This document shows, piece by piece, positions 28,031 to 57,923 of a DNA stretch of 64,000 bases (positions are counted from its first letter, which is position 1; the number at the start of each line of letters is the position of its first letter). The position numbers and the translations under genes were made by a program. The DNA lies in assembly GCA_031373905.1 (NCBI GenBank), contig JANMNM010000078.1, positions 25,387 through 89,386 of the forward strand, read 5' to 3'. This DNA comes from Gemmatimonadaceae bacterium. Lineage in GTDB: Bacteria > Gemmatimonadota > Gemmatimonadetes > Gemmatimonadales > Gemmatimonadaceae. The notes under the pieces are model-generated. The model saw nothing but the letters and a program-made list of their open reading frames with translations. It was not told the DNA's origin and did no database searches.

Positions 28031-29023
28031 ATGCAGCATTCATGGATGTGGGCCGCATTCGCCATTGTCGTTTCGGCAATGCTTGCGCTCGACCTCGGCG
28101 TTTTTCACAAGAAGGCGCATACCGTACGTCCCCGTGAAGCCGCCATCTGGAGCCTCGTGTGGTTCGTGCTTGCCTGCGGCTTCGCGCTCACCCTCTGGCA
28201 ACTCGACGGGCACCAGACCGCAATAGAGTTCGCGACCGGGTACATCGTCGAGCTCGCGCTGAGCGTTGACAACCTCTTCGTCTTCCTGTTGCTCTTCGGC
28301 TACTTCGCGGTCCCCGAAGCGCTGCAACACCGAGTGCTCTTCTGGGGCATCATCGGTGCGCTGGTGATGCGAGCCATGATGATTGGCGCGGGCGCGGTGC
28401 TGCTCGACCGCTTCCACTGGATCATCTACGTCTTCGGCGCATTTCTCGTCTTCACCGGCATCCGGATGCTGCTGCAGAAGGAGAGCGAGATGGAACCGGA
28501 GCGCAATCCGGTGCTCAAGCTGATGCGGCGACTGGTCCCGGTCAGCGATCACTTTGAAGGCGATCGCTTCTTTGCGCGCGCGCCATGGGGGCCCGACGGG
28601 ATCGTTCAACGGGTGGCGACGCCGCTATTCGTGGTGCTGGTGCTGGTGGAGACCACGGACCTGGTTTTCGCGGTGGACTCGATCCCAGCGGTGTTCGGCG
28701 TGACGCGTGACCCCTTCGTCGTGTATACGTCGAACGTGTTCGCCATTCTCGGCCTGCGATCGATGTACTTCCTGCTCGCGGCGGTGGTGCATCGCTTCTG
28801 GCTGCTCAAGCCGGCGCTGTCGCTGGTGCTGCTCTTCGTCGGTGCCAAGATGCTGGCCAGCGCGTACTATCACCTTCCGACCTGGGTGTCGCTGGTCGTG
28901 ATCGTGGGTGTGCTTGGCGGCGCGGTGGGGCTTTCGCTGGCGTTTCCGCGTCCGGCACCGCTTCCGGATGCGCTCCCTCCAGGGGCCGGGGCACGTCAGC
29001 CGGCACCCACGACGACGTCGTGA
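28031..29023 (+). CDS. TerC family integral membrane protein
   Basis: Motifs ELALSVDNLFVFLLLF and LVFAVDSIPAVFGVTRDPFVVYTSNVFAILGLRSMYF. Confidence 0.85.
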   Translation: MQHSWMWAAFAIVVSAMLALDLGVFHKKAHTVRPREAAIWSLVWFVLACGFALTLWQLDGHQTAIEFATGYIVELALSVDNLFVFLLLFGYFAVPEALQHRVLFWGIIGALVMRAMMIGAGAVLLDRFHWIIYVFGAFLVFTGIRMLLQKESEMEPERNPVLKLMRRLVPVSDHFEGDRFFARAPWGPDGIVQRVATPLFVVLVLVETTDLVFAVDSIPAVFGVTRDPFVVYTSNVFAILGLRSMYFLLAAVVHRFWLLKPALSLVLLFVGAKMLASAYYHLPTWVSLVVIVGVLGGAVGLSLAFPRPAPLPDALPPGAGARQPAPTTTS

Positions 29024-31013: not shown

Positions 31014-32183
31014 ATGACGGAGCCGATCGTGCGCCTCGATGGCGTGCGCCTGGCGCTCTTCAGCGACACGTACCCGCCGCAGATGAACGGCGTGTCACGC
31101 ACGCTCGAGCGGCTCGTGACCGCGGCGCGTGATCGCGGCGCAGCGGTGCGCGTGTTCACGACATCCGACCCCGATGCAACGACCGTTGACGAGGCCGTCG
31201 TGCGCTGGCCGAGTGCGCCATTCTGGGCGTATCCGCAGGTGCGACTCGCGCCGCCGCGTGCGTTCGCCGCGCGTCGCGCACTTTCGGAATGGCGCCCGTC
31301 ACTGGTGCATGTCGCGACAGAATTCGGCGTTGGATTCGCTGGTCGCGCAGCGGCGCTGTCGCTGCGGGTGCCGCTGGTGACGAGCTATCACACGAGCTTC
31401 AGCGCCTACGCCGAGTTCTACCGTCTTGGCGCACTTGCTCCGATGGGTTGGAAATACTTCCGCTGGTTCCACTCGGCCGCCGCATTGACGGTCACGCCGA
31501 CTGACGCGATTCGCCGCGAGGTCGAGGCCCACGGCTTCGGCAACGTTGGCGTCTGGGGACGCGGGGTGGACGGCGAGCGCTTCGATCCCGCGTTCCGGTC
31601 GATGGAATGGCGGCGCGAGCACGGAATCGAAGACGATGCGATGGTGGTGCTGTACGTCGGACGCATTGCCCGGGAGAAAGGCCTGGAGCACGCACTCCGT
31701 GCGATGCAGGAACTGGCAGGCGTCGCGCCACGGATCCGTTTCGTGTGCGTTGGCGACGGGCCGTATGAGGCGGAGATGCGGGCCAGCGCCCCACCGGGTG
31801 TGATCTTCACTGGCAGGCTGTCTGGCGTTCCGCTCAGCACGGCGTATGCATCGAGCGACATTTTCCTCTTTCCATCCGTCACCGATACGTTCGGCAACGT
31901 GTTGCTGGAGGCGATGGCGTCAGGACTGGTGGTGGTATCGGCGGAGGCCGGGAATACGCGTGAACTGGTTGGCACCGATCTGAGTCGCGGGGTCCTTGTC
32001 GACGCGGCGGCTCCGGGCGTCATCGCGAGTGCGCTCCTGTCCCTGGAGACGGATCGCGTACGCCATGCGGCAATCCGTGCGCACGCGCAGGCGTGGGCAC
32101 GGGAGCGGACCTGGACCAAGGTCTGGAACGGGTTGTTCCGCGACTATCTGCGGGTGATCAGCGCGCGAGCTGCCAGTTCGTGA
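31014..32183 (+). CDS. Glycosyltransferase family 4
   Basis: N-terminal ALFSDTYPPQMNGVSRTLERL and C-terminal TDTFGNVLLEAMASGLVVVSAEAG blocks. Confidence 0.85.
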   Translation: MTEPIVRLDGVRLALFSDTYPPQMNGVSRTLERLVTAARDRGAAVRVFTTSDPDATTVDEAVVRWPSAPFWAYPQVRLAPPRAFAARRALSEWRPSLVHVATEFGVGFAGRAAALSLRVPLVTSYHTSFSAYAEFYRLGALAPMGWKYFRWFHSAAALTVTPTDAIRREVEAHGFGNVGVWGRGVDGERFDPAFRSMEWRREHGIEDDAMVVLYVGRIAREKGLEHALRAMQELAGVAPRIRFVCVGDGPYEAEMRASAPPGVIFTGRLSGVPLSTAYASSDIFLFPSVTDTFGNVLLEAMASGLVVVSAEAGNTRELVGTDLSRGVLVDAAAPGVIASALLSLETDRVRHAAIRAHAQAWARERTWTKVWNGLFRDYLRVISARAASS

Positions 32184-33321
32184 ACTCCTTCTCTCCGGTG
32201 ACTTCGCGCACAACCCACGGGGCGAGCCAGTCAGGAATGGAGACCGCTGTCTCGGCGGTGGGGAGTTCGAGTTCCGCGACCACCAGCGCACGGTCCGTGA
32301 ACTCATCGATCTCCCAGCGACTTTCGCCGTCGGGGACCGTGTAGCGGCGCTTTCGCACACGTCGCCCTTCCGTGAGCGCGAACAGCGCAATCCCGATGGC
32401 CGGCGTCGCGGGCTCCTCGACTTCGATGCGCGAGATCCCGCGCCCGAGCTTCACAGTCCTGATCCACGACACGCCATCCGCCGTCGAGATGCTGCGAATG
32501 CGCTCGACCAGTTCCTCGCCAGGCAGGTACCCCTGAGCGATCGTCACGAACGGCATCGCGAGCAGGTGCGGCGGCAACGCGGACAACAGCCATTTGCGCT
32601 CGATTTCGACCGGAAGCGCGGCACGACGGCGCCACGCGCCGCTGAGCGACGCGGCAGCGGCAGCGATCACGCGAACTGCGTCAGGATGCGGTGCTGGCAT
32701 CGCGGCGATCTCGCGCACAGTCTGGAGCAGCAGGGACGCCTGCTCGCTCGACGACTCCAGCGGGGTCAGCACCGACGAGACGGCGTACACTGCCACGGAC
32801 ACTGCGCGTCGAGTGTCATCCGTGGCGTCGTGTGCATGTGCCGTCAGTCGTCGGTTCAGGCGCTCGACGGACCGGTCCAGGGCGTCGGCGGCAGTGCTCG
32901 CGAAGGACGCTGGCCGTTCAATGGAGTCCAGCGCATGGCGCTCTCGCCACACGAGCAGCCGCGTACGAAGCGGCGCGACGAGCTCGTCCCACCGCTCGGC
33001 GTCGGTCCGCGTGTTGCCGGAGCTCACTGCAGTGCCCTGGGTCAGGCGGCGCGCGAGCGCGACTGCGCGCCGCGACACGATCGCGGGCCGCAGTTCCTCC
33101 AGCACCGGGCCATACGCATCACAGACGTGGCGCAGCTGCATCACCGCCTGGCGGAGGTCACTCGCGGCACGCGTGCGATCATTGCCGATGGCGGCGAGCC
33201 GTCCTTTCGCCGAGTCGCCCGCGGCTATGGCCGCGCGGCAGAGTCGCCGGACGCTCTCGGCGGCGGGTGCGTCGAGGAGCGAGTCTGCGCTGGGCAGCTG
33301 TGCGGCGAGCGAGTCGGGCAT
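32158..33321 (-). CDS. CHAD-like helical domain fused N-terminally to a CYTH (triphosphate tunnel) domain
   Basis: C-terminal CYTH with the ExExK signature (VEIERKWLL) and downstream acidic strands (RWEIDEF, VVAELELP). The N-terminal helical region has a CHAD-like motif (DLRQAVMQLRHVCDAY). Start set at ATG 33321 because a sigma-70-like promoter for marR occupies 33380-33407. Confidence 0.75.
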   Translation of the reverse strand: MPDSLAAQLPSADSLLDAPAAESVRRLCRAAIAAGDSAKGRLAAIGNDRTRAASDLRQAVMQLRHVCDAYGPVLEELRPAIVSRRAVALARRLTQGTAVSSGNTRTDAERWDELVAPLRTRLLVWRERHALDSIERPASFASTAADALDRSVERLNRRLTAHAHDATDDTRRAVSVAVYAVSSVLTPLESSSEQASLLLQTVREIAAMPAPHPDAVRVIAAAAASLSGAWRRRAALPVEIERKWLLSALPPHLLAMPFVTIAQGYLPGEELVERIRSISTADGVSWIRTVKLGRGISRIEVEEPATPAIGIALFALTEGRRVRKRRYTVPDGESRWEIDEFTDRALVVAELELPTAETAVSIPDWLAPWVVREVTGEKEFTNWQLAR

Positions 33322-33379
33322 CCGAGGCAATATGGAACGCTTGGCCAGCCTGGCGTGGCCGAGCGGTACCGTTCCTGCC

Positions 33380-33434
33380 TTGACAGGGCTCCAATCCACG
33401 GTATTATTCGATATCGAAACACATGATATCGAAA
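33380..33434 (+). promoter_or_regulatory. Sigma-70-like promoter plus palindromic operator upstream of the MarR gene
   Basis: TTGACA (33380-33385), 16-nt spacer, TATTAT (33402-33407). Perfect palindrome TTCGATATCGAA (33407-33418). GATATCGAAA occurs twice (33410-33419, 33425-33434). Locally AT-rich in a GC-rich genome. Confidence 0.55.
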
Positions 33435-33451
33435 TATTGGACATCCAATAA

Positions 33452-33949
33452 ATGCCTTCTCATCACCGCGGAACCGAGAGCGAGCGCAGAACCCTCGATG
33501 CGTACATCAAGCTCATGCGTGCGGCATCGGCCGTGAACGCGGGACTGTTTCCGCGCTTGCTGGCAGAGCATGGCGTAACTCCCTCGCAGCTTGGTGTGCT
33601 CGAGACGCTGTGGCACCTGGGTCCGATGCCCCACTGCGCCCTGGCCACGAAGCTGCTCGTGAGCCCCAGCAACCTGACCACGGTCATCGACAATCTCGAG
33701 CGGGGCGGGCTCGTGCGGCGTGACCGGGATCCGGCCGATCGCCGCGTCTCGATCACCTCGCTCACCTCGACGGGCGAGGCGCGAGTTGCCGACTTCTTCC
33801 CACAGCATGTGCAGCGGCTGGTCGCGGCCATGTCTGGGCTCGACGATGCGGAACAGGTGGAACTGGCACGCCTCTGCCGAAAGCTCGGCCACGCTGCCGC
33901 CTCTTCCGCCGCTCCGGACCAGAACGCCGCAACGTCGTCAAAACCGTAA
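33452..33949 (+). CDS. MarR family transcriptional regulator (MhqR-like by context)
   Basis: Winged-helix block GVTPSQLGVLETLWHLGPMPHCALATKLLVSPSNLTTVIDNLERGGLVRRDRDPADRR. Confidence 0.9.
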   Translation: MPSHHRGTESERRTLDAYIKLMRAASAVNAGLFPRLLAEHGVTPSQLGVLETLWHLGPMPHCALATKLLVSPSNLTTVIDNLERGGLVRRDRDPADRRVSITSLTSTGEARVADFFPQHVQRLVAAMSGLDDAEQVELARLCRKLGHAAASSAAPDQNAATSSKP

Positions 33950-34002
33950 TTCCGAACGGCACGATCTCGTCGTGTACTTGTCTTGTCCCTCCTCTCACGC
34001 AG

Positions 34003-34647
34003 GTGCAACAAATGAATGGCATCGATTCATCCTCCATCGAAGCATTGACTACCACCTTGACTGAAGCAGCCGAAACGCGACGCTCGATTCGCAAGTACGA
34101 GCCGACGGCGGTTCCGCGCGAGCACCTTCTGGAGATTCTTCGCGTCACCTCGCTGGCGCCGTCACCGTGGAACGTGCAGCCGTGGCGCTTCGTGATCGTC
34201 GAGGACGCTGACACCAAGGCGAAACTGCAGGAGGCGGCGTACGGACAGGCGCAGATCGGCTCGGCGCCGGCGGCGATCGTGCTGTACTCCGACATGACTG
34301 ATGCGATCGACACGATCGAGGAAACGGTTCACCCGGGCATGCGCGGGCCTGCCGGTGACAAGGCCGCCGCAGATATTCGCGCGACCTTCGGCCGCATGAG
34401 CGAGAGTGACCGCGCGGCATGGGGATTTGCGGAAAGCAACATTGCACTCGGGTACCTGCTGCTCGCGGCGCGCGCACACGGTTACAGCACGAGTCCGATG
34501 CTCGGATTCATGCCCGATGCAGTGAAGTCACTGCTCGGACTTCCAGCCGATGCGCGCATTCCAGCGATCGTCGCGATCGGCATCGGAGCTGAGGAAGGTT
34601 TCCCGCACCATCGCCACGCGGTTGAGCGGATCGCCCGCTTCGTCTGA
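34003..34647 (+). CDS. Nitroreductase family protein
   Basis: TRRSIRKYEP...APSPWNVQPWRF motif typical of the NfsB/FRase superfamily. Confidence 0.8.
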   Translation: MQQMNGIDSSSIEALTTTLTEAAETRRSIRKYEPTAVPREHLLEILRVTSLAPSPWNVQPWRFVIVEDADTKAKLQEAAYGQAQIGSAPAAIVLYSDMTDAIDTIEETVHPGMRGPAGDKAAADIRATFGRMSESDRAAWGFAESNIALGYLLLAARAHGYSTSPMLGFMPDAVKSLLGLPADARIPAIVAIGIGAEEGFPHHRHAVERIARFV

Positions 34648-34735
34648 GCTGGCGTAAGGAACGATTTCGAGTTGCGGGTTGGCGATGGCGGTGCGCCATC
34701 GGCCCACCCCGTGACAGCATCCTGGAGACGCACGC

Positions 34736-35701
34736 ATGTACCGCACATCAGGCCTGCATCATCTCACGGCCATCGCCGGTGATCCGCAGCGCAACCTGAA
34801 TTTCTACGCTGGAACGCTTGGCCTGAGACTGGTCAAGAAGACCGTGAATTTCGATGATCCAGGGACGTATCATCTGTATTACGGCGATGCGACCGGTAGT
34901 CCAGGAAGCATCCTGACGTTCTTCCCGTGGCCGAACGCCCGGCGGGGCACTGTGGGCGCGGGGCAAGTGGTGGAGACGCAACTCGCCATTCCGCGGGCGG
35001 CGCTGGGCTTCTGGGTCGAGCGCCTGACCGCGCATCAGGTCACGTTCGCAGGTCCGTCGCACCGGTTTGGCACTGAGTCAGTGCTCACATTCACCGATCC
35101 AGACGGACTGCCACTCGCCCTGGTTGCGAGTGACGCGGCGAACGCGCTGCCGGGATGGGACGGTGGCAACGGTGTTCCCGCGCAGATGAGCATTCGGGGC
35201 ATGCACGCCGTCACGCTGCTCGTCCGTTCGCTCGAAGCCACGGCAAATGTGCTGACGGCAATGCTTGGCTTCATCGAGCATTCGCGGGACGCGGAGGTCG
35301 TGCGCTATGCAAGCGGTGAGGCGGCACCGGGCACCTTGCTCGACGTGCGAGTGCTGAAGACCGCTGCTGGCGGAACTGGTGGGGCAGGTACTGTGCATCA
35401 CGTCGCATTTCGCGCCGCGGACGACGAAGTCGAGCGCGAGCTGCAGGCACAGGTCCGGTCGGCTGGTCTTCCGATCACGGAACAGATCGACCGGACGTAT
35501 TTCAGGTCGATGTACTTCCGCGAGCCGGGGCAGGTGTTGTTCGAACTGGCCACTGATGGGCCTGGATTCGCCATTGATGAGGATCCGGCGCATCTGGGTG
35601 AGGCGCTGAGGCTTCCGTCGCAACACGAACACCTTCGGTCGGTTCTCGAGCAGCATCTGGAGCCGCTTCATGTTCCGGCCGCCGTCGGCGTCTCGTCATG
35701 A
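34736..35701 (+). CDS. Ring-cleaving dioxygenase, glyoxalase/VOC superfamily (MhqO/MhqE/YkcA-like)
   Basis: GLHHLTAIAGDPQRNLNFYAGTLGLRLVKKTVNFDDPGTYHLYYGD and a second VOC repeat (VHHVAFRAADD...YFRSMYFREPGQVLFELATDGPGF). Confidence 0.8.
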   Translation: MYRTSGLHHLTAIAGDPQRNLNFYAGTLGLRLVKKTVNFDDPGTYHLYYGDATGSPGSILTFFPWPNARRGTVGAGQVVETQLAIPRAALGFWVERLTAHQVTFAGPSHRFGTESVLTFTDPDGLPLALVASDAANALPGWDGGNGVPAQMSIRGMHAVTLLVRSLEATANVLTAMLGFIEHSRDAEVVRYASGEAAPGTLLDVRVLKTAAGGTGGAGTVHHVAFRAADDEVERELQAQVRSAGLPITEQIDRTYFRSMYFREPGQVLFELATDGPGFAIDEDPAHLGEALRLPSQHEHLRSVLEQHLEPLHVPAAVGVSS

Positions 35702-36330
35702 GCGAGGCGCTGAACCACTTCGTGCATGTGCACGTACCGCCAGGCCCTGGTTCATCCGAAACGCGCACGCTGTTGCTGTTGCACGGGACTGGTGGCAACG
35801 AACGGGATCTCCTGACACTTGGCACCGCCATTGCGCCCGGGGCCCGTCTGCTGGGCGTGCGCGGGCAGGTGCTCGAAGGAACCATGCCGCGATTCTTTCG
35901 CCGACTGGCCGAGGGCGTCTTCGACGAGGCCGACCTGATGGTGCGCGCGGCGGAGCTCGGTGCGTTCGTTGCCGCGGCAGCTGAGGCGTACGGGTTCGAC
36001 CGATCAACGGTGGTTGCGGTAGGCTATTCGAACGGGGCGAACATCGCGGCAGCGCTGCTGCTGCTGCATCCACGTGTCCTGAACGGTGCGGTGCTGTTCC
36101 GCGCGATGGTGCCGCTCGTCCCTGCGAGGTTGCCGGAGTTGCATGGCGTGCCGGTGCTGATGGTGGAGGGGCAGAATGACTCGATTGTTCCGCGCGCGAA
36201 TGCGGAGCGACTCGAATCGTTGCTGCGCGATTCGGGGGCGACGGTCACCCTGCACTGGGAGCCTGCGGCACACGGGCTGACGCAGTCCGACGTCGTGGTC
36301 GCTGGGCAGTGGCTCGGGGCTCACAACTGA
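35698..36330 (+). CDS. Phospholipase/carboxylesterase family alpha/beta hydrolase (MhqD-like)
   Basis: LLLLHGTGGNERDL, nucleophile elbow GYSNGANIAA, and a conserved C-terminal His region. 4-nt overlap with the dioxygenase gene. Confidence 0.75.
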   Translation: MSEALNHFVHVHVPPGPGSSETRTLLLLHGTGGNERDLLTLGTAIAPGARLLGVRGQVLEGTMPRFFRRLAEGVFDEADLMVRAAELGAFVAAAAEAYGFDRSTVVAVGYSNGANIAAALLLLHPRVLNGAVLFRAMVPLVPARLPELHGVPVLMVEGQNDSIVPRANAERLESLLRDSGATVTLHWEPAAHGLTQSDVVVAGQWLGAHN

Positions 36331-36354: not shown

Positions 36355-37203
36355 GTGCGCATATCTTTCGGCGTGCACTACTGGCGCGCTCTCCTGCCCC
36401 TGGGACTCGCTGCCGCGACGGCTGCCGCCGCGCTGGCACCGACGTTCGGGCTCCCGGCTCCCGACTCGCGGCGAGGTCTGGCGCTGCTGGAGTCATTCAA
36501 GGACAGCCTGCCGCGATATGCGGGCAACACGCTCCGCTGCACGAGCTGCCACCTGGATGCCGGCCGCCGCGGCACGGCGATGTCGTGGATCGATGTCACG
36601 TCCCGCTATCCGAAATACCGCGCGCGTCGCGGAGCAATCGAGACGATCGAGCAGCGTGTGAACGAGTGCATCGCCCGCAGCCTTGCCGGCCGGATGTTGC
36701 CCGAAGATCACAGTGCGATGCGAGACATGGTGGCGTATCTGGAATCGCTGAAAGGCCTGCCGCTGCCGCAGCGGCCTGACACGGTTCGATTGGTCGGCGA
36801 TACACTCACGGGTGCCGTTGCGTACACGGCGAACTGTGCGCGCTGTCACGGCGCGCGCGGGACTGGCGCAGTCGCACCCGCGATCGTGGGTCGCAACGCG
36901 TACTCGATCGGCGCCGGCATGGCTCGGCAGAACGTGCTCGCGACATTCCTGCGCTGGAACATGCCGCACGATCAGCCGGGCACGCTGAGTGCACAGAACG
37001 CCGCTGACATCGCCGCGTGGGTGTTGAGGCAACCGCGACCCGATCATCCCGGCAAGGAGCGGGACTGGCCGAAGGGCGACCCACCGGCGGATGTCGCGTA
37101 CGCGACCGATGGTGCCCGGGCGCGTGGCCTGCCGCTGCCCGCCGCGCGGCCGCTGCTTCGCCGCCGAGTGAGTCCGGGCGGGCCTGCGCGCGCGGCGCAT
37201 TGA
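36355..37203 (+). CDS. Dihaem c-type cytochrome, thiosulfate dehydrogenase (TsdA)-like
   Basis: Signal peptide, two CxxCH sites (CTSCH, CARCH), a conserved Cys in RVNECIARSLAG, and a GAGMAR...FLRWNMP block resembling TsdA. GTG start. Confidence 0.6.
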   Translation: MRISFGVHYWRALLPLGLAAATAAAALAPTFGLPAPDSRRGLALLESFKDSLPRYAGNTLRCTSCHLDAGRRGTAMSWIDVTSRYPKYRARRGAIETIEQRVNECIARSLAGRMLPEDHSAMRDMVAYLESLKGLPLPQRPDTVRLVGDTLTGAVAYTANCARCHGARGTGAVAPAIVGRNAYSIGAGMARQNVLATFLRWNMPHDQPGTLSAQNAADIAAWVLRQPRPDHPGKERDWPKGDPPADVAYATDGARARGLPLPAARPLLRRRVSPGGPARAAH

Positions 37204-37634
37204 TGTCGCGAGGGGCGAAGCCTGACGCCGAGGATGCGGACGATGATGCACTGCCCGGGCGCGTGCGGCTCGACAAGTGGTTGTGGGCCGCCCGATTCTT
37301 CAAGACGCGCGCACTGGCGGCAGAGGCGATCGACGGCGGCAAGGTCTCGGTCAACGATGATCGGCCAAAGCGGGCACGCCTGATCCAGGTTGGCGATGAG
37401 ATTCGCGTCCGGCTCGGGCCGTACGAGCACCAGCTCGTGGTGCGCGACGTCAGCGGTCGGCGGGGATCTGCAGCAGTCGCTCAGGCGTTGTATGAGGAGC
37501 GGGCCGCGAGCATCGCAGCGCGGGCGGCACTCGCGGAACAGCATCGGACGTCGGCGACCGCATTTGCGTATCACGAGGGGCGACCGAGCAAGAAGGATCG
37601 ACGAGCGATCGATCAGGTGCGCCGTCGCGACTGA
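37203..37634 (+). CDS. hslR: Ribosome-associated heat shock protein Hsp15 (S4 RNA-binding domain)
   Basis: RLDKWLWAARFFKTRALAAEAIDGGKVSVN S4 motif. The ATG overlaps the cytochrome TGA (TGATG). Confidence 0.8.
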   Translation: MSRGAKPDAEDADDDALPGRVRLDKWLWAARFFKTRALAAEAIDGGKVSVNDDRPKRARLIQVGDEIRVRLGPYEHQLVVRDVSGRRGSAAVAQALYEERAASIAARAALAEQHRTSATAFAYHEGRPSKKDRRAIDQVRRRD

Positions 37635-37744
37635 ATGCGCGGCTACCGTAACATCATCAGCGATCAGGTCCCGGCGTGTTGTCGTCACCGAGACGTAAAC
37701 CGAGATTTCATTCTCCGTGGCACACCGCATACGACCGGATCATC

Positions 37745-39949
37745 ATGCCGTTTCTTCTCAGTCGCACGACGAACGAATTGGTTGCGCAGACCCTCGGACT
37801 CGAAATCGAGCCGCGGCGGTGGGATCCCGGCTTCATCGGTGCGCCACCGAGTATCAACGATGTGTCGTCCCTCGCGAACGCAATTGAGACAGTCGGGAAG
37901 CAGGGGGAGCTGAGCTACCTGCGTCGTTCGCTGGGGAGGAAGGAATTCGAATCCATGGTCGCAGATGGTGCCGTCCCGATCATCCTGCTGCCGGAACGCG
38001 CGGGTCCGTTGCTCGAAGCGCACGTCGTCGTGGCGGTCAGTTCCGATGGCACGCTGACGATCGAGCCCGTGACGCTCAAGGGTCGTGGAACCTCGTATCG
38101 CGCCTCGTTCGACGCCGTCTGGACGCGTCTCGCGTCGCCGGTGGTGTTTGCGCTGGTGCCGGTGCGCCTGACGCCGGTGCTCAGCGATCGTGGCGATGGC
38201 CTGAACCACGACCAGGAGGCGCGCGAACCCCTGACCCCGTTCGAGCGACTGACCCAGTTGCTGCATGCAGATCGACGTGACATCGAGCTGGTGTATCTCT
38301 ATGCGGTCCTGGTGGGACTCTTCAGTCTCACGGTGCCGTTGGCCGTGCAGGGGTTGACGCAGCTCGTTCAGGGCGGATTGTTGCTGCAGCCGGTCGTCCT
38401 GCTGATCGTGTTCGCGATCGTCGGCACGCTCATCACCGGCGCCATTCAGCTGTTGCAGGAATCGGTTGTCGAACGGATTCAGCAGCGGGTCTTCGCGCGG
38501 CTGGCATTCGAGTTTGCCTACCTGGTGCCGCGGATCCGGTTCGAGGCTGCGCAGCAGGCGAACCTGCCGCTGCAGATGAACCGTTTCTTCGAAGCGGTGC
38601 TGATCCAGAAAGCGCTGGCAAAACTGCTGCTCGATGTCCCGACAGCCACACTGCAGGTGCTGTTCGGGCTCGCGCTGCTCTCGTTCTACAACCCGAGCTT
38701 CATCGTCTTTGCCCTCCTGTTGCTGGGTGGCGTGTATGTGATCTTCCGGCTCACGTTTCCGCGCGGGCTGGAGACGAGCATCATGGAGTCGAAGTTCAAG
38801 TACACGGTGCTCGAGTGGCTGCAGGCGATGGCACGTTCGATTGCGGCGTTCAAGTTCTCGACGCGCTCCACGCTGCCCATCGAGCGGATGGACAGTCATG
38901 TGGCGAACTACCTCAAGTATCGTCGCAAGCACTTCAGGGTCCTGATCACGCAGTCGATGAGCATGATCGTGTTCAAGACGTTGCTGACGGGTGCCCTGCT
39001 GATTCTCGGCACGACGCTGGTCGTCGATCGCTCGCTGACCCTCGGGCAATTCGTCGCGGCGGAGCTGGTCATCGTCACCGTGCTGGCGGGCGTCGAGAAG
39101 CTGATCCGTTCACTGGCGACGATCTACGATGTGCTGACATCCGTCGACAAGGTCGGCCATGTGATGGACCTGCCGGTGGAGGAGATCCGCGGCCTGCAGC
39201 TGCCGACATCGGAGTCCGGGCTCGCGATCCAGGCACGCGAGCTCTCGTTCACGTATCCGGACCAGTTGGCACCAACGCTGTCCGGCATTGACCTCGATAT
39301 CCCCTCGGGCGCACGTGTCGGCATCACGGGTGTCGATGGCAGCGGCCAGACGACACTGCTCCGGGTGCTTGGCGCGCTGCACGACGGGTTCGGCGGCACG
39401 CTGACGTACGATGGTGTGACGCTGCGGAGCATGAATCGTGCGGCGTTGCGCGAGCAGATCGGGCAGGTGCTGTCCACCACCGACCTGTTCGACGGGACCA
39501 TCGAGGACAACATCAGCGTCGGCCGTCGCTTCGTGGACCGTGCGGCCGTGCTGAAGGCACTCCGTGATGTCGACGTCGATGAGTTTGTCCAGGCCATGCC
39601 GGAAGGGATCCTCACGATGATCACGAACGGCGGGACCAACCTCTCGGCGGCGGTTGCGAGCAAGCTGCTCGTGGCGCAGGGAATCGTCGGGTCGCCACGC
39701 CTGCTGCTGCTGGATGACTTCTTCCAGAATCTGGCGGACGAGTATCGAACACGACTCATCCGCCTGCTGATGGACCGGCGTGCGTCGCACACGGTGATCG
39801 CGGTCTCACACGACCCCGAGTTCCTCGCGGCTTGCGACCTGATCATCGTCATGGAGAGCGGCCGCATTCGCGAAAGTGGGTCATATGCCGAGTTGGCATC
39901 GAGGCTTGGCAACGCCTCGGTGCACGGACTGACCGCCCCGGTGCGCTGA
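37745..39949 (+). CDS. ABC exporter (C39-like domain + 6-TM domain + degenerate nucleotide-binding domain)
   Basis: Type I exporter TMD. The NBD aligns by eye to HlyB, but Walker A is GVDGSGQT, the signature is LSAAV and Walker B is LLLLDDF. The N-terminal ~150 aa are C39-like and contain no cysteine. Start at internal ATG 37745. Confidence 0.8.
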   Translation: MPFLLSRTTNELVAQTLGLEIEPRRWDPGFIGAPPSINDVSSLANAIETVGKQGELSYLRRSLGRKEFESMVADGAVPIILLPERAGPLLEAHVVVAVSSDGTLTIEPVTLKGRGTSYRASFDAVWTRLASPVVFALVPVRLTPVLSDRGDGLNHDQEAREPLTPFERLTQLLHADRRDIELVYLYAVLVGLFSLTVPLAVQGLTQLVQGGLLLQPVVLLIVFAIVGTLITGAIQLLQESVVERIQQRVFARLAFEFAYLVPRIRFEAAQQANLPLQMNRFFEAVLIQKALAKLLLDVPTATLQVLFGLALLSFYNPSFIVFALLLLGGVYVIFRLTFPRGLETSIMESKFKYTVLEWLQAMARSIAAFKFSTRSTLPIERMDSHVANYLKYRRKHFRVLITQSMSMIVFKTLLTGALLILGTTLVVDRSLTLGQFVAAELVIVTVLAGVEKLIRSLATIYDVLTSVDKVGHVMDLPVEEIRGLQLPTSESGLAIQARELSFTYPDQLAPTLSGIDLDIPSGARVGITGVDGSGQTTLLRVLGALHDGFGGTLTYDGVTLRSMNRAALREQIGQVLSTTDLFDGTIEDNISVGRRFVDRAAVLKALRDVDVDEFVQAMPEGILTMITNGGTNLSAAVASKLLVAQGIVGSPRLLLLDDFFQNLADEYRTRLIRLLMDRRASHTVIAVSHDPEFLAACDLIIVMESGRIRESGSYAELASRLGNASVHGLTAPVR

Positions 39950-39950
39950 G

Positions 39951-41273
39951 ATGACTGATCATCGACAGCAGAAACGGGACGTGCTCTCCGACAACGACTA
40001 CCTCGAGTCGGCCAAGCTGCTCGTGACCCCGCAGTCACACCGGCTCTTCTACCGGATCGTGATGGGCACGCTGGTGGGACTCGTGCTCGCCATGCTGTTG
40101 CCGTGGCAGCAGTTCGTGGAAGGGAAAGGTGAGGTCACCGCGTTCTCGCCATCCGACCGGCCGCAGGTCGTGCCGACGACCATCGGCGGACGGATCGTCG
40201 AGTGGTATGTACAGGAGGGCCAGACGGTCAAGGCCGGCGACCCGATCCTGCGCATCGCCGAGGTGAAGGACGACTACCTCGATCCACGTACGATCGATCG
40301 ATACAACGAGCAATTGTCCGGAAAGTCGAGCGCCGTCGGTGCCAAGCGCGAGAAGGCGCGGCAACTCGGATTGCAGATCGGGCTGCTCGAACAGAATCTC
40401 CGTCTTGGCGAACAGAAGGCGCGCACCAAGGTCGCCCAGTACGAAGCGGAGGTACGGGCATCGGTTCTCGACTCCGCCACATCGCTGACGCAACTGCAAC
40501 GGCAGCAGACACTCTTCGATCAGGAGCTGACAAGGCTCACGGATCTCGAGAACGCGCGCGTGCGGTACCAGAACACGATCGCGCGGTTGCAGGAGAAGCG
40601 GCAGGCGCTGCAGGCGGCGCAGATCGAGCTGAACGCCGTGGCCGTGGAGTATGGCGAGAAGATCGCGAAAGCGCGCTCCGATCAGTCGTCGACGCTGGCA
40701 GAGGTGGGTGAAGGGACTGCCGACGTGGCAAAGCTGAGACAGAACGTGCAGAACCTCGAGATCCGCAATGGCTTCTACGTGATCCGCGCGCCGCAGAACG
40801 GCACCGTGATACGAGCGGCGCGCGCCGGGATCGGGGAACAGCTCAAGGAAGGAGAGACGGTGATCACCATCATGCCGGCCGACGCGCTGCAAGCGGTCGC
40901 GCTGCTGGTGAAGCCGATGGATGTGCCGCTGTTGAGCGTCGGTCGGCGCGTTCGGCTGCAGTTTGATGGATGGCCGGCGTTGCAGTTTGCCGGCTGGCCC
41001 AGCGTGAGCGTCGGCACGTTTGGTGGCACGATCGCCGTGATCGATCGAGTGCCTGGCCCCAACGGAAACTTCCGGGTCCTCGTGACTCCGGACTCGACCG
41101 ATGAAGCATGGCCGCGCCAGCTGCGACTTGGCTCGGGCGTTCTCGGGTGGGCGATGCTCGACGAGGTTCGCGTTGGCTTCGAGATCTGGCGTCGGATCAA
41201 CGGATTCCCGCCCTCCCTTCGTGAGGCCAGCGACGAAGGGTTCGGTGGCCAGCCGAAGCCGGCGGGCAAGTGA
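39951..41273 (+). CDS. HlyD family membrane fusion / periplasmic adaptor protein
   Basis: N-terminal TM, lipoyl-like hairpin (GGRIVEWYVQEGQTVKAGDPILRI), a long coiled coil, and a beta-barrel C-terminus. It starts 1 nt after the ABC stop. Confidence 0.85.
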   Translation: MTDHRQQKRDVLSDNDYLESAKLLVTPQSHRLFYRIVMGTLVGLVLAMLLPWQQFVEGKGEVTAFSPSDRPQVVPTTIGGRIVEWYVQEGQTVKAGDPILRIAEVKDDYLDPRTIDRYNEQLSGKSSAVGAKREKARQLGLQIGLLEQNLRLGEQKARTKVAQYEAEVRASVLDSATSLTQLQRQQTLFDQELTRLTDLENARVRYQNTIARLQEKRQALQAAQIELNAVAVEYGEKIAKARSDQSSTLAEVGEGTADVAKLRQNVQNLEIRNGFYVIRAPQNGTVIRAARAGIGEQLKEGETVITIMPADALQAVALLVKPMDVPLLSVGRRVRLQFDGWPALQFAGWPSVSVGTFGGTIAVIDRVPGPNGNFRVLVTPDSTDEAWPRQLRLGSGVLGWAMLDEVRVGFEIWRRINGFPPSLREASDEGFGGQPKPAGK

Positions 41274-42766
41274 GAGTTCGCTTCGCTGCGCTGCTCGTGC
41301 TGTCTGGCATTACACCGCTCGAACTGCATGGGCAGGTCGCGCCTCGCCGCGGTCTGCCGCAGGTCAGCGACAGCGTTCGCATGCTCCCTGGCGCGCCGTT
41401 CACGTTCGATTCCTTCCTCGATGCCGTGCGCCGGAACCATCCCGTCGTTCGGCAGGCGCAACTCATCGAGGCGGGTGCCGAGGGTGACGTGACCGCGGCG
41501 TTCGGGAGCTTCGAGCCGAAGGTCGAGGCATCGTGGGCGACGAAGCGGTACGCGAGTTCGAGCATTCCCGGCGCGCAATCGCTGTACTACGACTATGCCG
41601 ATGTCGCCGTGAAGATCCCAACGCCATTCGGTCCCGATCTGAAGCTGGGGTATGAGCGTTCGACTGGCGCGTTCTCCAATCCGCAGAGCCGCACGCCGTC
41701 GGGCGGGTTGTTCTCGGCGGGATTCAGCCTTCCACTCGGGCAGCGGCTCCTGACGGATGAACGGCGCACCGCCTTGCGCACCGCGCGGGCGCTCCGGGGG
41801 GTCGCGCAAGCGGAACGCGCCGCGATGACGAACAAGCTGCTGTACTCCGCGGCCAAGGCCTACGCCGATTGGTACTCGTCGGCGCTGCAGCTCGAGGTGA
41901 TCCGCGAGGGAGTGCAGCTGGCGGATGTTCGATATACTGCGATCGCGCGTCGCGTGCGCGCTGGCGACGCGGCGGGGATCGACAGCATCGAGGCCGCTGC
42001 CGAGCTGAATCGCCGGCGGGCGCAATTGCAGGGTGCCGAGCAGGCGTACTTCGCCGCCACGATGGATCTCACCGCGTATCTCTGGGACGCGCGTGGCCTG
42101 CCGGAAGATCTGGCGCGCGACCGCGTTCCGAGTGATTCCGGGCTTGGCCGTGTGGCACTCGACTCGTCCGCCGTGCCCGCATTGTTGGCCCGGGTGCTCG
42201 CCCTGCATCCTGATGTCCGCAAGGCTGAGGGCAAGGTCGATCAGGCCACTGCAGAGCGAGCGCTGGCTCGACAAGCGATGATTCCGCTCGCCAGTGCTGA
42301 CTTGAGTGCACTCTCACCGAGCGGCTCCGGCTTCAACTTCGGCGATGCGCTCAGCCGCAGCGCGAACTTCAAGGGCGGGATCACCGTATCCTCGCCCCTC
42401 CTGTTCTTCAAGGAACGCGGCAAGTTCACCAGTACCGATGCGAAGTACCTGGGTGCCGAGCTGGATGCGCGGGTCGTGCGTCGGGACGTGTCACTGCTGG
42501 TCCGGACGGCGATCAACGATCTCTCGCTGTACGAGGCGCAGGTTGTGCTGCAGAAGGATGCAGTACGACTCTTCCGCATCCTCAGCGCTGGCGAGCGCGC
42601 GCGTTTCGAGGCCGGTGAGAGCACCTTGTTTCTCGTGAACACTCGTGAACGGCAGGTGCTGGAGGAGGAACTGAAGTATGTCGCGCTGCAGGCGAAATAC
42701 CTCGCGGCACGCGCCGCACTCGCAGTCGCGGCCGGTTCTCCGGGCCGATTGCCGGAGCTGCGCTGA
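41270..42766 (+). CDS. TolC family outer membrane efflux protein
   Basis: Signal peptide and two repeated OEP-like helical halves. 4-nt overlap with the hlyD-like gene. Confidence 0.8.
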   Translation: MRVRFAALLVLSGITPLELHGQVAPRRGLPQVSDSVRMLPGAPFTFDSFLDAVRRNHPVVRQAQLIEAGAEGDVTAAFGSFEPKVEASWATKRYASSSIPGAQSLYYDYADVAVKIPTPFGPDLKLGYERSTGAFSNPQSRTPSGGLFSAGFSLPLGQRLLTDERRTALRTARALRGVAQAERAAMTNKLLYSAAKAYADWYSSALQLEVIREGVQLADVRYTAIARRVRAGDAAGIDSIEAAAELNRRRAQLQGAEQAYFAATMDLTAYLWDARGLPEDLARDRVPSDSGLGRVALDSSAVPALLARVLALHPDVRKAEGKVDQATAERALARQAMIPLASADLSALSPSGSGFNFGDALSRSANFKGGITVSSPLLFFKERGKFTSTDAKYLGAELDARVVRRDVSLLVRTAINDLSLYEAQVVLQKDAVRLFRILSAGERARFEAGESTLFLVNTRERQVLEEELKYVALQAKYLAARAALAVAAGSPGRLPELR

Positions 42767-42825
42767 ACGCGTCGTGAAACAGTCCCGGGGGTGCGGCGTA
42801 CTTTAGTGAACGTCGCGCCCAACCC

Positions 42826-43533
42826 ATGAGGTCTCCGTCAATGCCTGACATCCCAATGCCCCGGATCGCCAACGCACTGGCTTTCGCCTGCCTGTTCAGT
42901 GCACCAGCCGACGCCCAGCGGAGTATTGCAGACTACCCCATCAGCGGCGGCATCCACGGGCTCTACGCGGAGCCCCTCGGCGACTTCCGGAGATATGTCG
43001 ATCGCGGCTGGGGAATCGGCGTCGACGGTCGCTGGTTCCCGGCGGCACAGAAGGCCCTGTCGATCCGTGGCGATATCGTCTTCCTGAATTACGGTCGATT
43101 CACGACACGCGAGTGCTTTGGCGGCGGCTGCCGCATTCAGATCGACATCAACACATCGAACAACATTCTCTCCGGCACCGTCGGGCCGGAGATCCAGGTA
43201 CCATCGGGGCCCATCCGGCCGTATGTGTACGCCGTCGGAGGGTTCACCACGTTCTGGACCCAGACGTCGGCCGAAGGCCAGAATGAGAATGACAACGTGT
43301 TCGACACGACGAATCTCCGGGACAACATCCTCAGCGCCGCCTTTGGTGGCGGTCTTCGGATTCCGGTCGCGGATCGCGTCATGCTCGACCTGAGCGCGCG
43401 GCGGCACGTGAACGGCCGGGCGCGCTACCTGACGCGAGACAGCTTTGGCGACGGCTCGGCCACCCTGCCCCTGGTCCGCGAAAGCGATGTGAACATGTGG
43501 ACGTACGGGATCGGCGTCTCGCTCGGACGATAG
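42826..43533 (+). CDS. Small outer-membrane beta-barrel protein
   Basis: Signal peptide ending ADAQ, and alternating aromatic/Gly beta-strand pattern (GWGIGVDGRWF, YVYAVGGFTTFW, WTYGIGVSL). Confidence 0.6.
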   Translation: MRSPSMPDIPMPRIANALAFACLFSAPADAQRSIADYPISGGIHGLYAEPLGDFRRYVDRGWGIGVDGRWFPAAQKALSIRGDIVFLNYGRFTTRECFGGGCRIQIDINTSNNILSGTVGPEIQVPSGPIRPYVYAVGGFTTFWTQTSAEGQNENDNVFDTTNLRDNILSAAFGGGLRIPVADRVMLDLSARRHVNGRARYLTRDSFGDGSATLPLVRESDVNMWTYGIGVSLGR

Positions 43534-43544
43534 CCGATGCCGCG

Positions 43545-44000
43545 TCAGTCGTCGTGCCGGACCGGGCGACGCTGTTGCTTCACATCACTGCGCTGAGCCT
43601 TCGATTCCAGCCGTTTCGCCTTCGAGGCATGGGTTGGCTTCGTGGCGCGGCGAACCTTGGGCACGAAGAGCGCGGCCTTCACCATCGCCACCAGTCGCGC
43701 CTCGGCTGCATCGCGGTTCTTGAGCTGACTGCGATGTTCGCTCGACGTGAGCCGCAGCCAGCCCTCGCTGTCGAGGCGCGACGCGAGGGCGGCCACGACG
43801 CGCTCGCGCTGGCTCGCCGAGAGTGCTGCGGATGTAACCGGCTGCCAGCGCAGTTCGATGCGCGTCGAGCTGGTGTTCACATGCTGCCCGCCCGGGCCAC
43901 CACTGCGGGTCGCCCGCACTTCAAGCTCGGAGCGCGGAATCCGGACATGCGCTGTCACCTTCAGGACATCGCGTACCGGGTGTTCCGCGTCAGCCTCCAC
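43545..44000 (-). CDS. arfB: Alternative ribosome-rescue factor ArfB (peptidyl-tRNA hydrolase, GGQ domain)
   Basis: SGGPGGQHVNTSSTRIELRW GGQ motif and a basic C-terminal tail (KVRRATKPTHASKAKRLESK). GTG start proposed at 44000, since the longer ORF N-terminus is Arg/Ser junk that overlaps the upstream gene. Confidence 0.8.
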   Translation of the reverse strand: MEADAEHPVRDVLKVTAHVRIPRSELEVRATRSGGPGGQHVNTSSTRIELRWQPVTSAALSASQRERVVAALASRLDSEGWLRLTSSEHRSQLKNRDAAEARLVAMVKAALFVPKVRRATKPTHASKAKRLESKAQRSDVKQQRRPVRHDD

Positions 44001-50043: not shown

Positions 50044-50110
50044 CTGGTAGTGGACGAGCCGGCTGGTACCGTACCCGACGGTCATATGATCTTCCACTAT
50101 GGAGTCGTAC

Positions 50111-50518
50111 ATGCGACGCAGCATGAAGAAGGGCTTTACCCTGATCGAACTCTTGATCGTCGTCGTGATCATCGGCATCCTTGCTGCGGTCGCGATCCCG
50201 AAGTTCTCGAACACCAAGCAGCGCGCCTCGCGCTCGGCCGGTATCGCCGACATGCGAAATCTGGCCACCGCGCAGGAAGGCTTCTTCGCCGACAGCAACC
50301 GGTATGCGGCGATCGCCGACACAGGCACTGGCACAGGCAAGATGAATTTCACGCCGTCGAACGGAAACACGGCGCTGACACTCGTCGCCAACGCGACGGG
50401 CTGGAGCGGCCTCGTGACTATTCCAGGTGCCCAGAAGTGCGGCATCTTCAGCGGCACCGCTGCCCGTCCGACGGGCATGCCGGCGACGAATCCGGACGGC
50501 GTGCCGGTCTGCTGGTAA
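50111..50518 (+). CDS. pilA: Type IV pilin (paralog 2)
   Basis: MRRSMKKG|FTLIELLIVVVIIGILAAVAIP, C-terminal disulfide loop C...C-W, and GGAG 7 nt upstream. Confidence 0.92.
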   Translation: MRRSMKKGFTLIELLIVVVIIGILAAVAIPKFSNTKQRASRSAGIADMRNLATAQEGFFADSNRYAAIADTGTGTGKMNFTPSNGNTALTLVANATGWSGLVTIPGAQKCGIFSGTAARPTGMPATNPDGVPVCW

Positions 50519-50552
50519 TCGCCTGACGCAGCGGCCTCGCGGCCAGCTGCCC

Positions 50553-50588
50553 GATCGGCCCGGGGTGCTTCGGCATGCCGGGCCGATC
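50553..50588 (+). terminator. Stem-loop downstream of pilin 2
   Basis: 11-bp perfect inverted repeat GATCGGCCCGG / CCGGGCCGATC with a 14-nt loop. There is no U-tract. Confidence 0.4.
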
Positions 50589-50792
50589 AGCTTCGCATAG
50601 CAGCGCGAACCGAAGTCTGGGGACGGGCACGCGATGAGGTGCAGCCTGGGTACGCCTCTGCCTGCGGCCGGCTGTGCGAATCACGCTCGGTGTGGCACCG
50701 GGCGGTGTCCCGCTCCGACTCCGCCCGGAAACCGCTCGCGTAACACGATGCAAGGGATGCGTGTACACGGCGAGACGCGGCTCGCAAGCCGT

Positions 50793-50808
50793 TGGCAGTC
50801 GTTCGGCA
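50793..50808 (+). promoter_or_regulatory. Weak sigma-54-like element upstream of pilin 3
   Basis: TGGCAGtcgttCGGCa has the correct GG-N10-GC spacing, but the -12 box is CGGC rather than TTGC. Confidence 0.25.
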
Positions 50809-50887
50809 GCCCGGCGCCACGACCGTGCTCAAAGCTTCATCCCGAAGCACCGGCTGACCGCCGCAACCCTTGCCTGAGGAGACCGCC

Positions 50888-51295
50888 ATGCGACGCAGCA
50901 TGAAGAAAGGTTTCACCCTGATCGAACTCCTGATCGTCGTCGTGATCATCGGCATCCTGGCGTCCGTCGCGATCCCGAAGTTCTCGGCCACCAAGCAGCG
51001 CGCCTCGCGCTCCAGCGGTGTCGCGGATATGCGAAACCTGGCGACGGCGCAGGAAGGCTTCTTTGCCGACAGCAGCCGGTATGCGGCGATCGCCGACACG
51101 GGCACCGGCACTGGCAAGATGAACTTCACGCCATCGACCGGAAATACTGCACTGACGCTCGTTGCGACCACGACAGGCTGGAGCGGTGTCGTGAACATCG
51201 CTGGTAGCCAGAAGTGCGGCATTTTCAGCGGCACGGCAGCACGACCGACGGGTATGCCCGCCACGAATCCGAGCGGCGTGCCGGTCTGCTGGTAA
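50888..51295 (+). CDS. pilA: Type IV pilin (paralog 3)
   Basis: Near-identical to paralog 2 at protein and DNA level. GAGGAG upstream of the ATG. Confidence 0.92.
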   Translation: MRRSMKKGFTLIELLIVVVIIGILASVAIPKFSATKQRASRSSGVADMRNLATAQEGFFADSSRYAAIADTGTGTGKMNFTPSTGNTALTLVATTTGWSGVVNIAGSQKCGIFSGTAARPTGMPATNPSGVPVCW

Positions 51296-51330
51296 ACGCG
51301 CCACGCAGCGGCCTCACCGGCAGCTGCCAG

Positions 51331-51364
51331 ATCGGCCCGGTGCGCCTTGTCGCGTCGGGCCGAT
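51331..51364 (+). terminator. Stem-loop downstream of pilin 3
   Basis: ATCGGCCCG / CGGGCCGAT 9-bp stem followed by TTTCTCGTT. Homologous to the hairpin after pilin 2. Confidence 0.5.
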
Positions 51365-51581
51365 TTCTCGTTGCAGTCCAAGTCGCGTGGGTGCGGCGAA
51401 TTCTGGGCTACACGATGCTGCCAGACCGTGGAACGATTGTACACCACGCGACGGAGCGCGCGCGTATGGACAGTAGCGGTGTCTTCGTCCGCCTCTGTGC
51501 GTGGAATTACCGCGAGCTGCGTGGCGGTGGAGGGCATCGGTGCTGCCCTTGGCCGTTACAGCACCGAACACGATCGGACCG

Positions 51582-57922: not shown

Positions 57923-57923
57923 C

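Follow-up and report, generated by a model that had tools for sequence, protein, structure and literature searches.

Transporters of the ATP-binding cassette (ABC) type are defined by ATP-driven transport, with ATP hydrolysed in a sandwich formed by the Walker A and B motifs and H-loop of one nucleotide-binding domain (NBD) and the signature motif and D-loop of the other. To our knowledge, the Walker A Lys and the catalytic Glu have been needed for hydrolysis in every ABC exporter tested, and degenerate ABC sites are known only as one of two, in heterodimers or in full-length transporters. The 64-kb stretch of DNA analysed here (hereafter the window), from a Gemmatimonadaceae bacterium (contig JANMNM010000078.1, positions 25,387 to 89,386), carries a three-gene operon encoding an ABC-fold inner-membrane component, a HlyD-type adaptor and a TolC-type outer-membrane factor (Table 1). 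The cassette is a tripartite ABC-type exporter, similar in layout to a type I secretion system (T1SS), and it is the energy source that gives it interest: judging from alignments, both halves of the composite ATPase site are degenerate in its single ABC protein, and the degeneracy extends to a large family found in at least seven phyla.

Among described systems, the HlyB-HlyD-TolC T1SS (PDB 8dck, 7sgr) has the same three components and the same gene coupling, and HlyB likewise joins an N-terminal accessory domain without catalytic Cys, the C39-like domain (CLD), to a type IV exporter transmembrane domain (TMD) and an NBD. However, the ATPase site of HlyB is fully canonical and essential, the window cassette has no linked RTX or other substrate gene within the 64 kb, its N-terminal domain has no sequence similarity to C39 or CLD domains, and its family possesses invariant TMD residues of its own, including Glu440 (E440). 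PCAT1, ComA and the NHLP/LssB-type exporters provide the best Foldseek and NCBIfam matches for the window ABC protein. Unlike these peptidase-containing ABC transporters (PCATs), the protein lacks a catalytic Cys or His, is accompanied by no double-glycine (GG)-leader gene, and belongs to a family in which the ATPase motifs are degenerate, the Peptidase_C39 domain is matched by Pfam neither in the window protein nor in any of 67 members, and many members have no N-terminal domain.

The heterodimeric exporters TM287/288, TmrAB, BmrCD and CydDC resemble the window protein in tolerating and conserving departures from consensus at Walker B (Asp in place of Glu), the signature and the H-loop, and in the folds of TMD and NBD (target-normalised TM-score, TMt, 0.84–0.88). 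They are, however, encoded by two adjacent genes, with the defects split between the subunits such that one consensus site is left, whereas the window has a single gene in which both site halves are degenerate, so that no consensus site would be possible.

Precedents also exist for running a membrane domain of ABC-exporter type on an ion gradient. The membrane domain of LmrA (LmrA-MD) is a secondary-active translocator, in which Glu314 of transmembrane helix 6 (TM6) is essential for proton-coupled transport (PMC6155054); a report on MsbA describes its ATP-dependent transport as proton-coupled (PMC4979069); and SbmA, a relative that lacks an NBD, is driven by protons by way of conserved glutamates (PMC8442886). 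For the window protein these, together with BacA, are analogies only: LmrA and MsbA keep working ATPases, LmrA-MD being an engineered truncation, and SbmA has its own fold with neither NBD nor coupling helices, whereas the window protein keeps its NBD, though dismantled, within a tripartite pump. MacAB-TolC and EmrAB-TolC share the arrangement of an inner-membrane transporter with a HlyD-family adaptor and a TolC-type channel, but MacB falls among the type VII ABC proteins and its ATPase is canonical, and EmrB belongs to the major facilitator superfamily (MFS), in contrast to the type IV ABC exporter fold found here. EmrAB demonstrates that a transporter driven by the proton-motive force can use the HlyD-adaptor/TolC-channel architecture.

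The motif register was set by a phmmer (HMMER) alignment of the ABC protein to ABCB4 and ABCB1. In Walker A (itGVDGSGQTtll against vGssGcGKSt) the Lys is replaced by Gln535; in the Q-loop (igqvlSttdlf against igvvsQepvlf) the Gln is replaced by Ser577; the signature reads LSAAV where LSGGQ is canonical (nLSAAVask against qLSGGQkqr); and Walker B has Asp658 in place of the catalytic Glu, followed by an altered D-loop (LLLLDDffQNLA against iLLLDEatSALD). The H-loop His689 is kept (viavsHd against iviaHr), and the A-loop Tyr504 (FTYP) is present. A preliminary description of the locus, in which the motifs had been aligned by eye, arrived at this same set of losses with the His retained; HMMER placed every motif at the identical position, ruling out mis-registration. 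The alignment shows the composite site to be degenerate on both sides, in its cis half (Walker A and B) and in its trans half (signature and D-loop), so that a dimer which includes this protein would have no canonical hydrolytic site. A homodimer would be non-canonical at both of its sites, and with a canonical partner each site would keep one degenerate half; with both halves defective, canonical ATP-driven cycling is unlikely.

These replacements are widely shared. A survey of the best 120 homologues (47–100% identity), the nearest of which are from Gemmatimonadaceae metagenome-assembled genomes (MAGs), found the degenerate motifs in all 120 (GxDGSG[QR][ST]T, L[SP]A[AH][VL], hhhhDD, FFQNLD and S[HN]D), with the Asp-Asp of Walker B invariant; canonical motifs in close relatives, which the preliminary description had said would point to decay in this strain only, were therefore absent from this set. 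Across the clade variants, the Lys position of Walker A is taken by Q, R, E, S, T or A, the Glu being seen in P0123 (GVEGAGES) and P0124 (GPDGSGET), and in further Gemmatimonadota paralogue or orthologue groups the Walker A position reads GFVGAGSSS. Codon alignments of 12 orthologues (66 pairs) gave median ratios of non-synonymous to synonymous substitution (dN/dS) that were lowest in the TMD (0.10), followed by the NBD (0.13) and the N-terminal domain (0.23), values that are approximate, as dS (0.7–1.1) is near saturation. This comparison, suggested in the preliminary description, shows the NBD to be under purifying selection, and in the Gemmatimonadaceae branch the replacements are conserved under it.

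Constraint is not spread evenly over the protein. Among 72 orthologues, half of the TMD columns are invariant (50%) versus 29% of those of the NBD; within the NBD, the P-loop is invariant at eight of its nine positions and 99% conserved at the remaining one, and the Walker B Asp-Asp, the H-loop Ser-His-Asp and the A-loop Tyr-Pro are likewise invariant. The signature is the least conserved motif (position conservation 0.74–0.97), so that, on these alignments, the cis pocket is constrained and the trans-acting signature relaxed. The D-loop reads QNLA only in the window protein and its closest relative, with QNLD in 97% of orthologues; this Ala is the sole motif position at which the window protein departs from its own clade.

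The family extends well beyond Gemmatimonadota. A HMMER search over 1.84 billion representatives was used to compile a table of the 150 best 50%-identity cluster representatives, all of which score above 360 bits, versus about 128 bits for the canonical half-transporter PCAT1, and at least 3082 clusters (90% identity) match the family profile at E ≤ 1e-60, mostly from Bacteroidota (Flavobacteriales, Saprospiraceae, Catalinimonas). Its members are spread over no fewer than seven phyla (Gemmatimonadota, Bacteroidota, Kapabacteria/Ignavibacteria, Acidobacteriota, Nitrospirota, Armatimonadota and Planctomycetota), named examples being Chryseolinea, Kapabacteria/Ignavibacteria and Chloracidobacterium, with others from Nitrospira, Chthonomonadaceae and Pirellulales. 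No specific functional name for the family was found in the curated sources searched, and its automatic annotations read [quoted passage not shown] or “peptidase domain-containing ABC transporter”.

In the motif table of the 150 representatives, an intact LSGGQ occurs in none and its first Gly in nine; the Q-loop Gln is seen at the aligned position in none, and is outside the eight commonest residues there. The Walker A Lys is retained in 112, the catalytic Glu in 30 (Asp in 80), the H-loop His in 26 (Asn in 76) and an A-loop aromatic residue in 113, yet Lys, Asp-Glu and His occur together in only seven. LSGGQ was also absent from all of 120 further, mostly Bacteroidota, members (P0309–P0428). 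On this alignment evidence, degeneracy characterises a large family that crosses phyla. Its flavour in P0309–P0428 is distinct from that of the Gemmatimonadaceae clade, as these proteins mostly keep the Walker A Lys, and their Walker B pair, where a crude pattern found one, is mostly Glu-Asp, the reverse of the canonical Asp-Glu.

In a crude neighbour-joining (NJ) tree rooted on two canonical exporters, near-canonical members lie at the base (Chloracidobacterium P0219, Kapabacteria P0213), most of them with Lys, Asp-Glu, His and an LSxGQ-like signature, and the degenerate majority is derived. The sub-clade containing the window protein has additionally lost the Walker A Lys and kept the H-loop His, and Nitrospira and Kapaibacterium members have no recognisable P-loop. 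The statement in the preliminary description that all catalytic motifs have degenerated thus holds for this clade and not for the basal members of the family.

The TMD, the most conserved region of the protein, comprises six helices in the AlphaFold2 (AF2) model (residues 177–209, 215–263, 274–315, 318–364, 377–427 and 433–474). Residues of the TMD that are invariant or nearly so across the family and differ from two canonical exporters include E243, N279, K289, S349, K352, Y353, W358, Y389, E440, E451, Y461, D462 and K469. E440 is Glu in 150 of 150 representatives and Leu in both canonical exporters, and its motif, GQFVAxE, recurs in 119 of the 120 further members. It lies eight residues into TM6 (helix 433–455), where the hydrophobic core is centred on residues 438–446. 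In the NBD, the segment following the Q-loop, LFDGTIEDNI, is conserved, with N589 invariant. Since this part of the NBD is turned towards the coupling helices in ABC exporters, coupling between NBD and TMD still appears to be in place.

These observations may be best explained by a homodimeric pseudo-ATPase ABC exporter within a tripartite envelope-spanning pump, possibly driven by an ion gradient, a reading that is adopted tentatively and that falls a little short of an even balance. The ATP-hydrolysing site would have been dismantled stepwise within the family, leaving a protein that, given the established roles of the lost residues, is most likely a homodimer without the normal ATP-sandwich power stroke. 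With the P-loop, Walker B Asp, H-loop His and A-loop Tyr all invariant within this clade, and LFDGTIEDNI almost so, the NBD would be kept as a constrained module, probably for dimerisation or regulation and perhaps with a ligand still bound. Transport energy would most likely come from an ion (proton) gradient through the TMD, with E440, speculatively, as the coupling carboxylate; the conservation of the TMD and the family-wide invariance of this TM6 residue both speak for ion coupling. The fuller proposition, in which a natural ABC-fold family has abandoned ATP hydrolysis altogether and its TolC-linked pump is ion-driven via the TM6 Glu, with the dead NBD serving as a dimerisation or sensor module, we regard as somewhat unlikely.

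Several points weigh against ion coupling by a dead ATPase. The assignments of ATP binding, hydrolysis and ion coupling are drawn from sequence and predicted structure, and the tree behind the stepwise order carries no support values. E440 could bind substrate instead of a proton, since its invariance extends to those basal members that seem to be competent ATPases. Its equivalence in position with Glu314 of LmrA was considered and not adopted: by an estimate from the spacing to Walker A, Glu314 would presumably fall near Y461/D462. The cis pocket is, moreover, more conserved than the NBD average, which fits nucleotide binding and possibly slow, non-canonical hydrolysis; a Gln or Arg in place of the Lys can still form a hydrogen bond with a phosphate, and an Asp can serve as a weak base. 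The absence of a partner gene, finally, holds for the scanned flanks of up to 10 kb, and a partner may be encoded further away.

The main rival takes up the conserved pocket: Mg-ATP would be bound in cis by the P-loop glycines, Thr536/Thr537, the Walker B Asp657, His689 and the A-loop Tyr504, and slow hydrolysis by Asp658 and His689 would drive or reset a slow export cycle. The invariance of these cis residues in a clade where only 29% of NBD columns are invariant, the family-wide frequency of the A-loop aromatic residue and the Walker A Lys, the specific retention of the H-loop His in the very clade that lost the Lys, and the conserved NBD-TMD coupling region are all consistent with such an enzyme. 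It is nevertheless unlikely, as both residues required in tested exporters are replaced, there is no signature to clamp the γ-phosphate in trans, this motif being the least constrained, the Glu at the Lys position in P0123 and P0124 should repel phosphate, and the Nitrospira and Kapaibacterium members have no recognisable P-loop. A complex that does not pump, but serves as a ligand-gated or passive trans-envelope conduit or tether for downhill export or as an envelope organiser, with the NBD dimer as gate or sensor as in CFTR and SUR, would account for the loss of catalytic residues alongside a retained fold, TMD and adaptor/TolC partnership, and for contexts that are varied, often housekeeping, and without a conserved substrate gene. 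We know of no precedent for a TolC-linked ABC-fold conduit of this kind, however, and a very conserved TMD interior with a buried Glu is more typical of a coupled transporter, while the Chryseolinea cassette, headed by a TetR-family gene, resembles inducible efflux pumps; this explanation is improbable.

The preliminary description had put forward two alternatives, an obligate heterodimer partner encoded elsewhere and a non-hydrolysing ABC-like component. The second agrees with the motif conservation in 120 of 120 homologues, the NBD dN/dS and the cross-phylum degeneracy. The first, in which a canonical half-transporter would supply one working site as in TM287/288, TmrAB and CydDC, gains from the fact that one-degenerate-site ABC heterodimers are common (PMC7756269) and that the scan covered the window and 10-kb flanks of related loci. 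It is disfavoured, and very improbable, as no second ABC gene was found near the cassette in 28 sequences from seven phyla (the window, 20 loci and 7 gene-called loci), both composite sites of any pair would be compromised, with a partner restoring at best one weakened site, and degeneracy is shared by the nearest Gemmatimonadota paralogue groups. The partner genes of known ABC heterodimers are usually adjacent, and none is adjacent here. Recent decay confined to this strain, a pseudogene in the making, has the degenerate motifs alone in its favour; the same motifs in 120 of 120 homologues and purifying selection (dN/dS 0.10–0.13) refute it, and the intact open reading frame (ORF), confident AF2 model and conserved synteny likewise leave it next to no credence.

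The full-length AF2 model of the ABC protein, built with 67 family sequences, has a mean predicted local distance difference test (pLDDT) of 91 and a predicted TM-score (pTM) of 0.89. Foldseek aligned it with HlyB of the HlyB/D complex (8dck_A; TM-score 0.75/0.79 over 730 columns) and with the cores of PCAT1, TM287/288 and MsbA (TMt 0.87–0.90; PCAT1 core 0.89), and the protein is accordingly predicted by the model to have an intact HlyB/PCAT-type, type IV exporter fold, that of an ABCB-like half-transporter.

The identity of the N-terminal domain is less secure. The preliminary description had proposed a Cys-free C39-like domain, resembling the C-terminal half of a C39 peptidase domain. Residues 1–172 indeed contain no Cys, and the lone His in the relevant strand is unconserved in the family alignment, but C39 identity is weak and at most at the level of fold: a 32-sequence family profile of the domain matched no C39 or CLD chain in the PDB, and Foldseek with a model of the domain alone (pLDDT 85.5) gave no match at E ≤ 0.001. 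Matches below this threshold were to a papain-like toxin (9l5u; TM-score 0.47/0.55, probability 0.99), the C39 domain of ComA (3k8u; TM-score 0.36/0.44, probability 0.77) and a CHAP hydrolase, suggesting a weak papain-like fold over the whole domain in place of half a peptidase. In the full-length superposition the domain sits at the position of the HlyB CLD; a CLD-like identity is plausible but weakly supported. A large part of the family lacks the domain, with lengths of approximately 550–590 aa.

At the level of the operon, the ABC and HlyD-like genes are separated by 1 nt and the HlyD-like and TolC-like genes overlap by 4 nt, a tight arrangement on the + strand; the intact ORF and this coupling are as the preliminary description had them, with the ORF length now given as 734 aa plus stop. 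Orthologues share the start Met of the ABC gene, and the G+C content of the window is 63–69%. Pfam detected ABC_tran alone in the ABC protein, at 53 bits (cutoff 25); ABC_membrane, unmatched there, was detected in 64 of the 67 family members. The top NCBIfam models for the ABC protein were T1SS LssB (186 bits), NHLP (186/184 bits) and HlyB (163 bits), with cutoffs of 693–853, and it fell below the curated thresholds of TIGR01846 (163/726 bits), TIGR03375 (186/693 bits) and TIGR01842 (160/510 bits). The adaptor likewise scored 83 bits on TIGR01843 (type_I_hlyD; cutoff about 209), and the TolC-like protein 54 bits on TIGR01844 (cutoff 225). Given these scores, the three proteins are best described as relatives, not members, of the curated T1SS families.

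Immediately downstream, a small outer-membrane β-barrel gene starts 60 nt 3' of the TolC-type gene. It holds this position in eight Gemmatimonadota loci, and partially in a ninth at a contig end, and was not seen beside the cassette in other phyla by tblastn of related loci; it may be a clade-specific fourth component. Upstream of the ABC gene, a 540-bp space considered as a possible site for a substrate peptide is occupied by an S4-domain, Hsp15/HslR-like gene, which rules this out. The ATG of that gene overlaps the stop of the preceding cytochrome c gene (TGATG), and only about 110 bp of non-coding DNA remain 5' of the operon. A promoter and terminator scan of positions 37100–44000 found nothing exceeding shuffled expectation.

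The triad of ABC, adaptor and TolC genes was found by tblastn in Kapaibacterium, Nitrospira, Chthonomonadaceae and other Gemmatimonadota, and also in Chloracidobacterium, Chryseolinea and two further metagenomic contigs. The HlyD gene lies 3' of the ABC gene in most related loci, the order in Nitrospira being HlyD-TolC-ABC; one Kapabacteria locus has the ABC and adaptor genes only, and another locus the ABC gene alone. The Gemmatimonadaceae MAGs show the order cytochrome c, hslR, ABC, HlyD, TolC, usually followed by the small β-barrel gene. Otherwise the neighbours of the cassette are varied and often housekeeping genes.

Searches of the window for partners and substrates were negative, in agreement with the preliminary description. 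A six-frame motif scan turned up no further Walker A or signature of ABC type within any credible ORF, tblastn with a canonical exporter matched this ABC gene alone, and Pfam found no other ABC protein among the larger ORFs. No RTX-repeat ORF or credible GG-leader peptide occurs in the 64 kb, the regex matches being out-of-frame junk, and no conserved substrate-like neighbour gene was found across the related loci examined, which leaves room for a substrate encoded elsewhere. The label “T1SS-like”, used in the preliminary description, implies a protein substrate and finds no supporting evidence here. In Chryseolinea (L082 9324–10004), the TetR-family gene and the start of the ABC gene share 4 nt; TetR genes often head drug-efflux operons, and the overlap is a hint that part of the family, at least, may serve inducible efflux of small molecules.

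Two further neighbours recur. The cytochrome c gene is upstream in all Gemmatimonadaceae loci that are long enough. Two Chloracidobacterium loci (L080, L081) and L085 have unrelated cytochrome c genes no more than approximately 5 kb from the cassette, which may be chance. TerC-family genes lie 1–10 kb from the cassette in the window and in Bacteroidota (L082 7558–8253, L084 12344–13258). Both are too sporadic to interpret. The remaining genes of the window include what looks like a detoxification cluster upstream of the cytochrome c gene, an ArfB-like gene immediately 3' of the cassette and a type IV pilus cluster (Table 1).

Table 1. Features of the ABC cassette and other genes of the window (positions within the 64-kb stretch)
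Feature	Position	Strand	Basis or remark
ABC-fold inner-membrane component, 734 aa + stop	37745-39949	+	ORF, ATG start; Pfam ABC_tran
N-terminal accessory domain, aa 1-172, weakly papain-like/C39-like fold	37745-38260	+	AF2, Foldseek
Transmembrane domain, aa 173-490	38261-39214	+	Six helices in AF2 model
Glu440 codon, TM6 motif GQFVAxE	39062-39064	+	Family alignment
Degenerate NBD, aa 491-734	39215-39946	+	HMMER alignment to ABCB1, ABCB4
Walker A remnant GVDGSGQTT, Lys to Gln535	39329-39355	+	HMMER alignment
Q-loop region IGQVLSTTDLF, Gln to Ser577	39458-39490	+	HMMER alignment
Signature remnant LSAAV (canonical LSGGQ)	39641-39655	+	HMMER alignment
Walker B LLLLDD (catalytic Glu to Asp658) and D-loop QNLA	39701-39736	+	HMMER alignment
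H-loop His689, kept	39809-39811	+	HMMER alignment
HlyD-type membrane-fusion (periplasmic adaptor) protein, 440 aa	39951-41273	+	Pfam HlyD_3, Biotin_lipoyl_2
TolC-type outer-membrane factor, 498 aa	41270-42766	+	Pfam OEP 135 bits, two stretches
Small outer-membrane β-barrel protein	42826-43533	+	Pfam OMP_b-brl, weak
S4-domain, Hsp15/HslR-like gene, 143 aa	37203-37634	+	Pfam
Cytochrome c gene	36355-37203	+	SoxA/TsdA-type and CBB3-type domains
MarR regulator, nitroreductase, glyoxalase-fold and dienelactone-hydrolase-like genes	33452-36330	+	
428-aa ORF	32158-33444	-	High G+C at third codon positions (GC3); no Pfam family
TerC-family gene	27884-29023	+	
RF-1-domain protein (ArfB-like peptidyl-tRNA hydrolase), 208 aa	43545-44171	-	
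Type IV pilus cluster, including PilN	50099-63546	+	
Pilin	50099-50518	+	
PilM	56023-57150	+	
PilO	57924-58568	+	
PilQ-type secretin	59065-61107	+	
810-aa ORF	61114-63546	+	No Pfam match

In the open-access literature, of which coverage is incomplete, neither this family nor any ABC exporter encoded by one gene and degenerate at both sites was found described. For what is a very common gene family of environmental bacteria the automatic “bacteriocin exporter” or “peptidase domain-containing ABC transporter” label would be misleading. A presumably homodimeric exporter with no canonical site, conserved under purifying selection and still joined to an adaptor and a TolC channel, would leave two conclusions to choose from, a new mechanism of ATP use or a tripartite pump that the membrane domain of an ABC-fold protein runs on another form of energy. 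The long-debated ion coupling of LmrA and MsbA would become testable in a natural system, with E440 as the test residue, and a comparison series is on hand, from the near-canonical basal members (Chloracidobacterium) to the fully degenerate derived ones. Under the fuller proposition, the family would represent a living intermediate between primary (ABC) and secondary transporters, and a natural counterpart of the engineered LmrA-MD.

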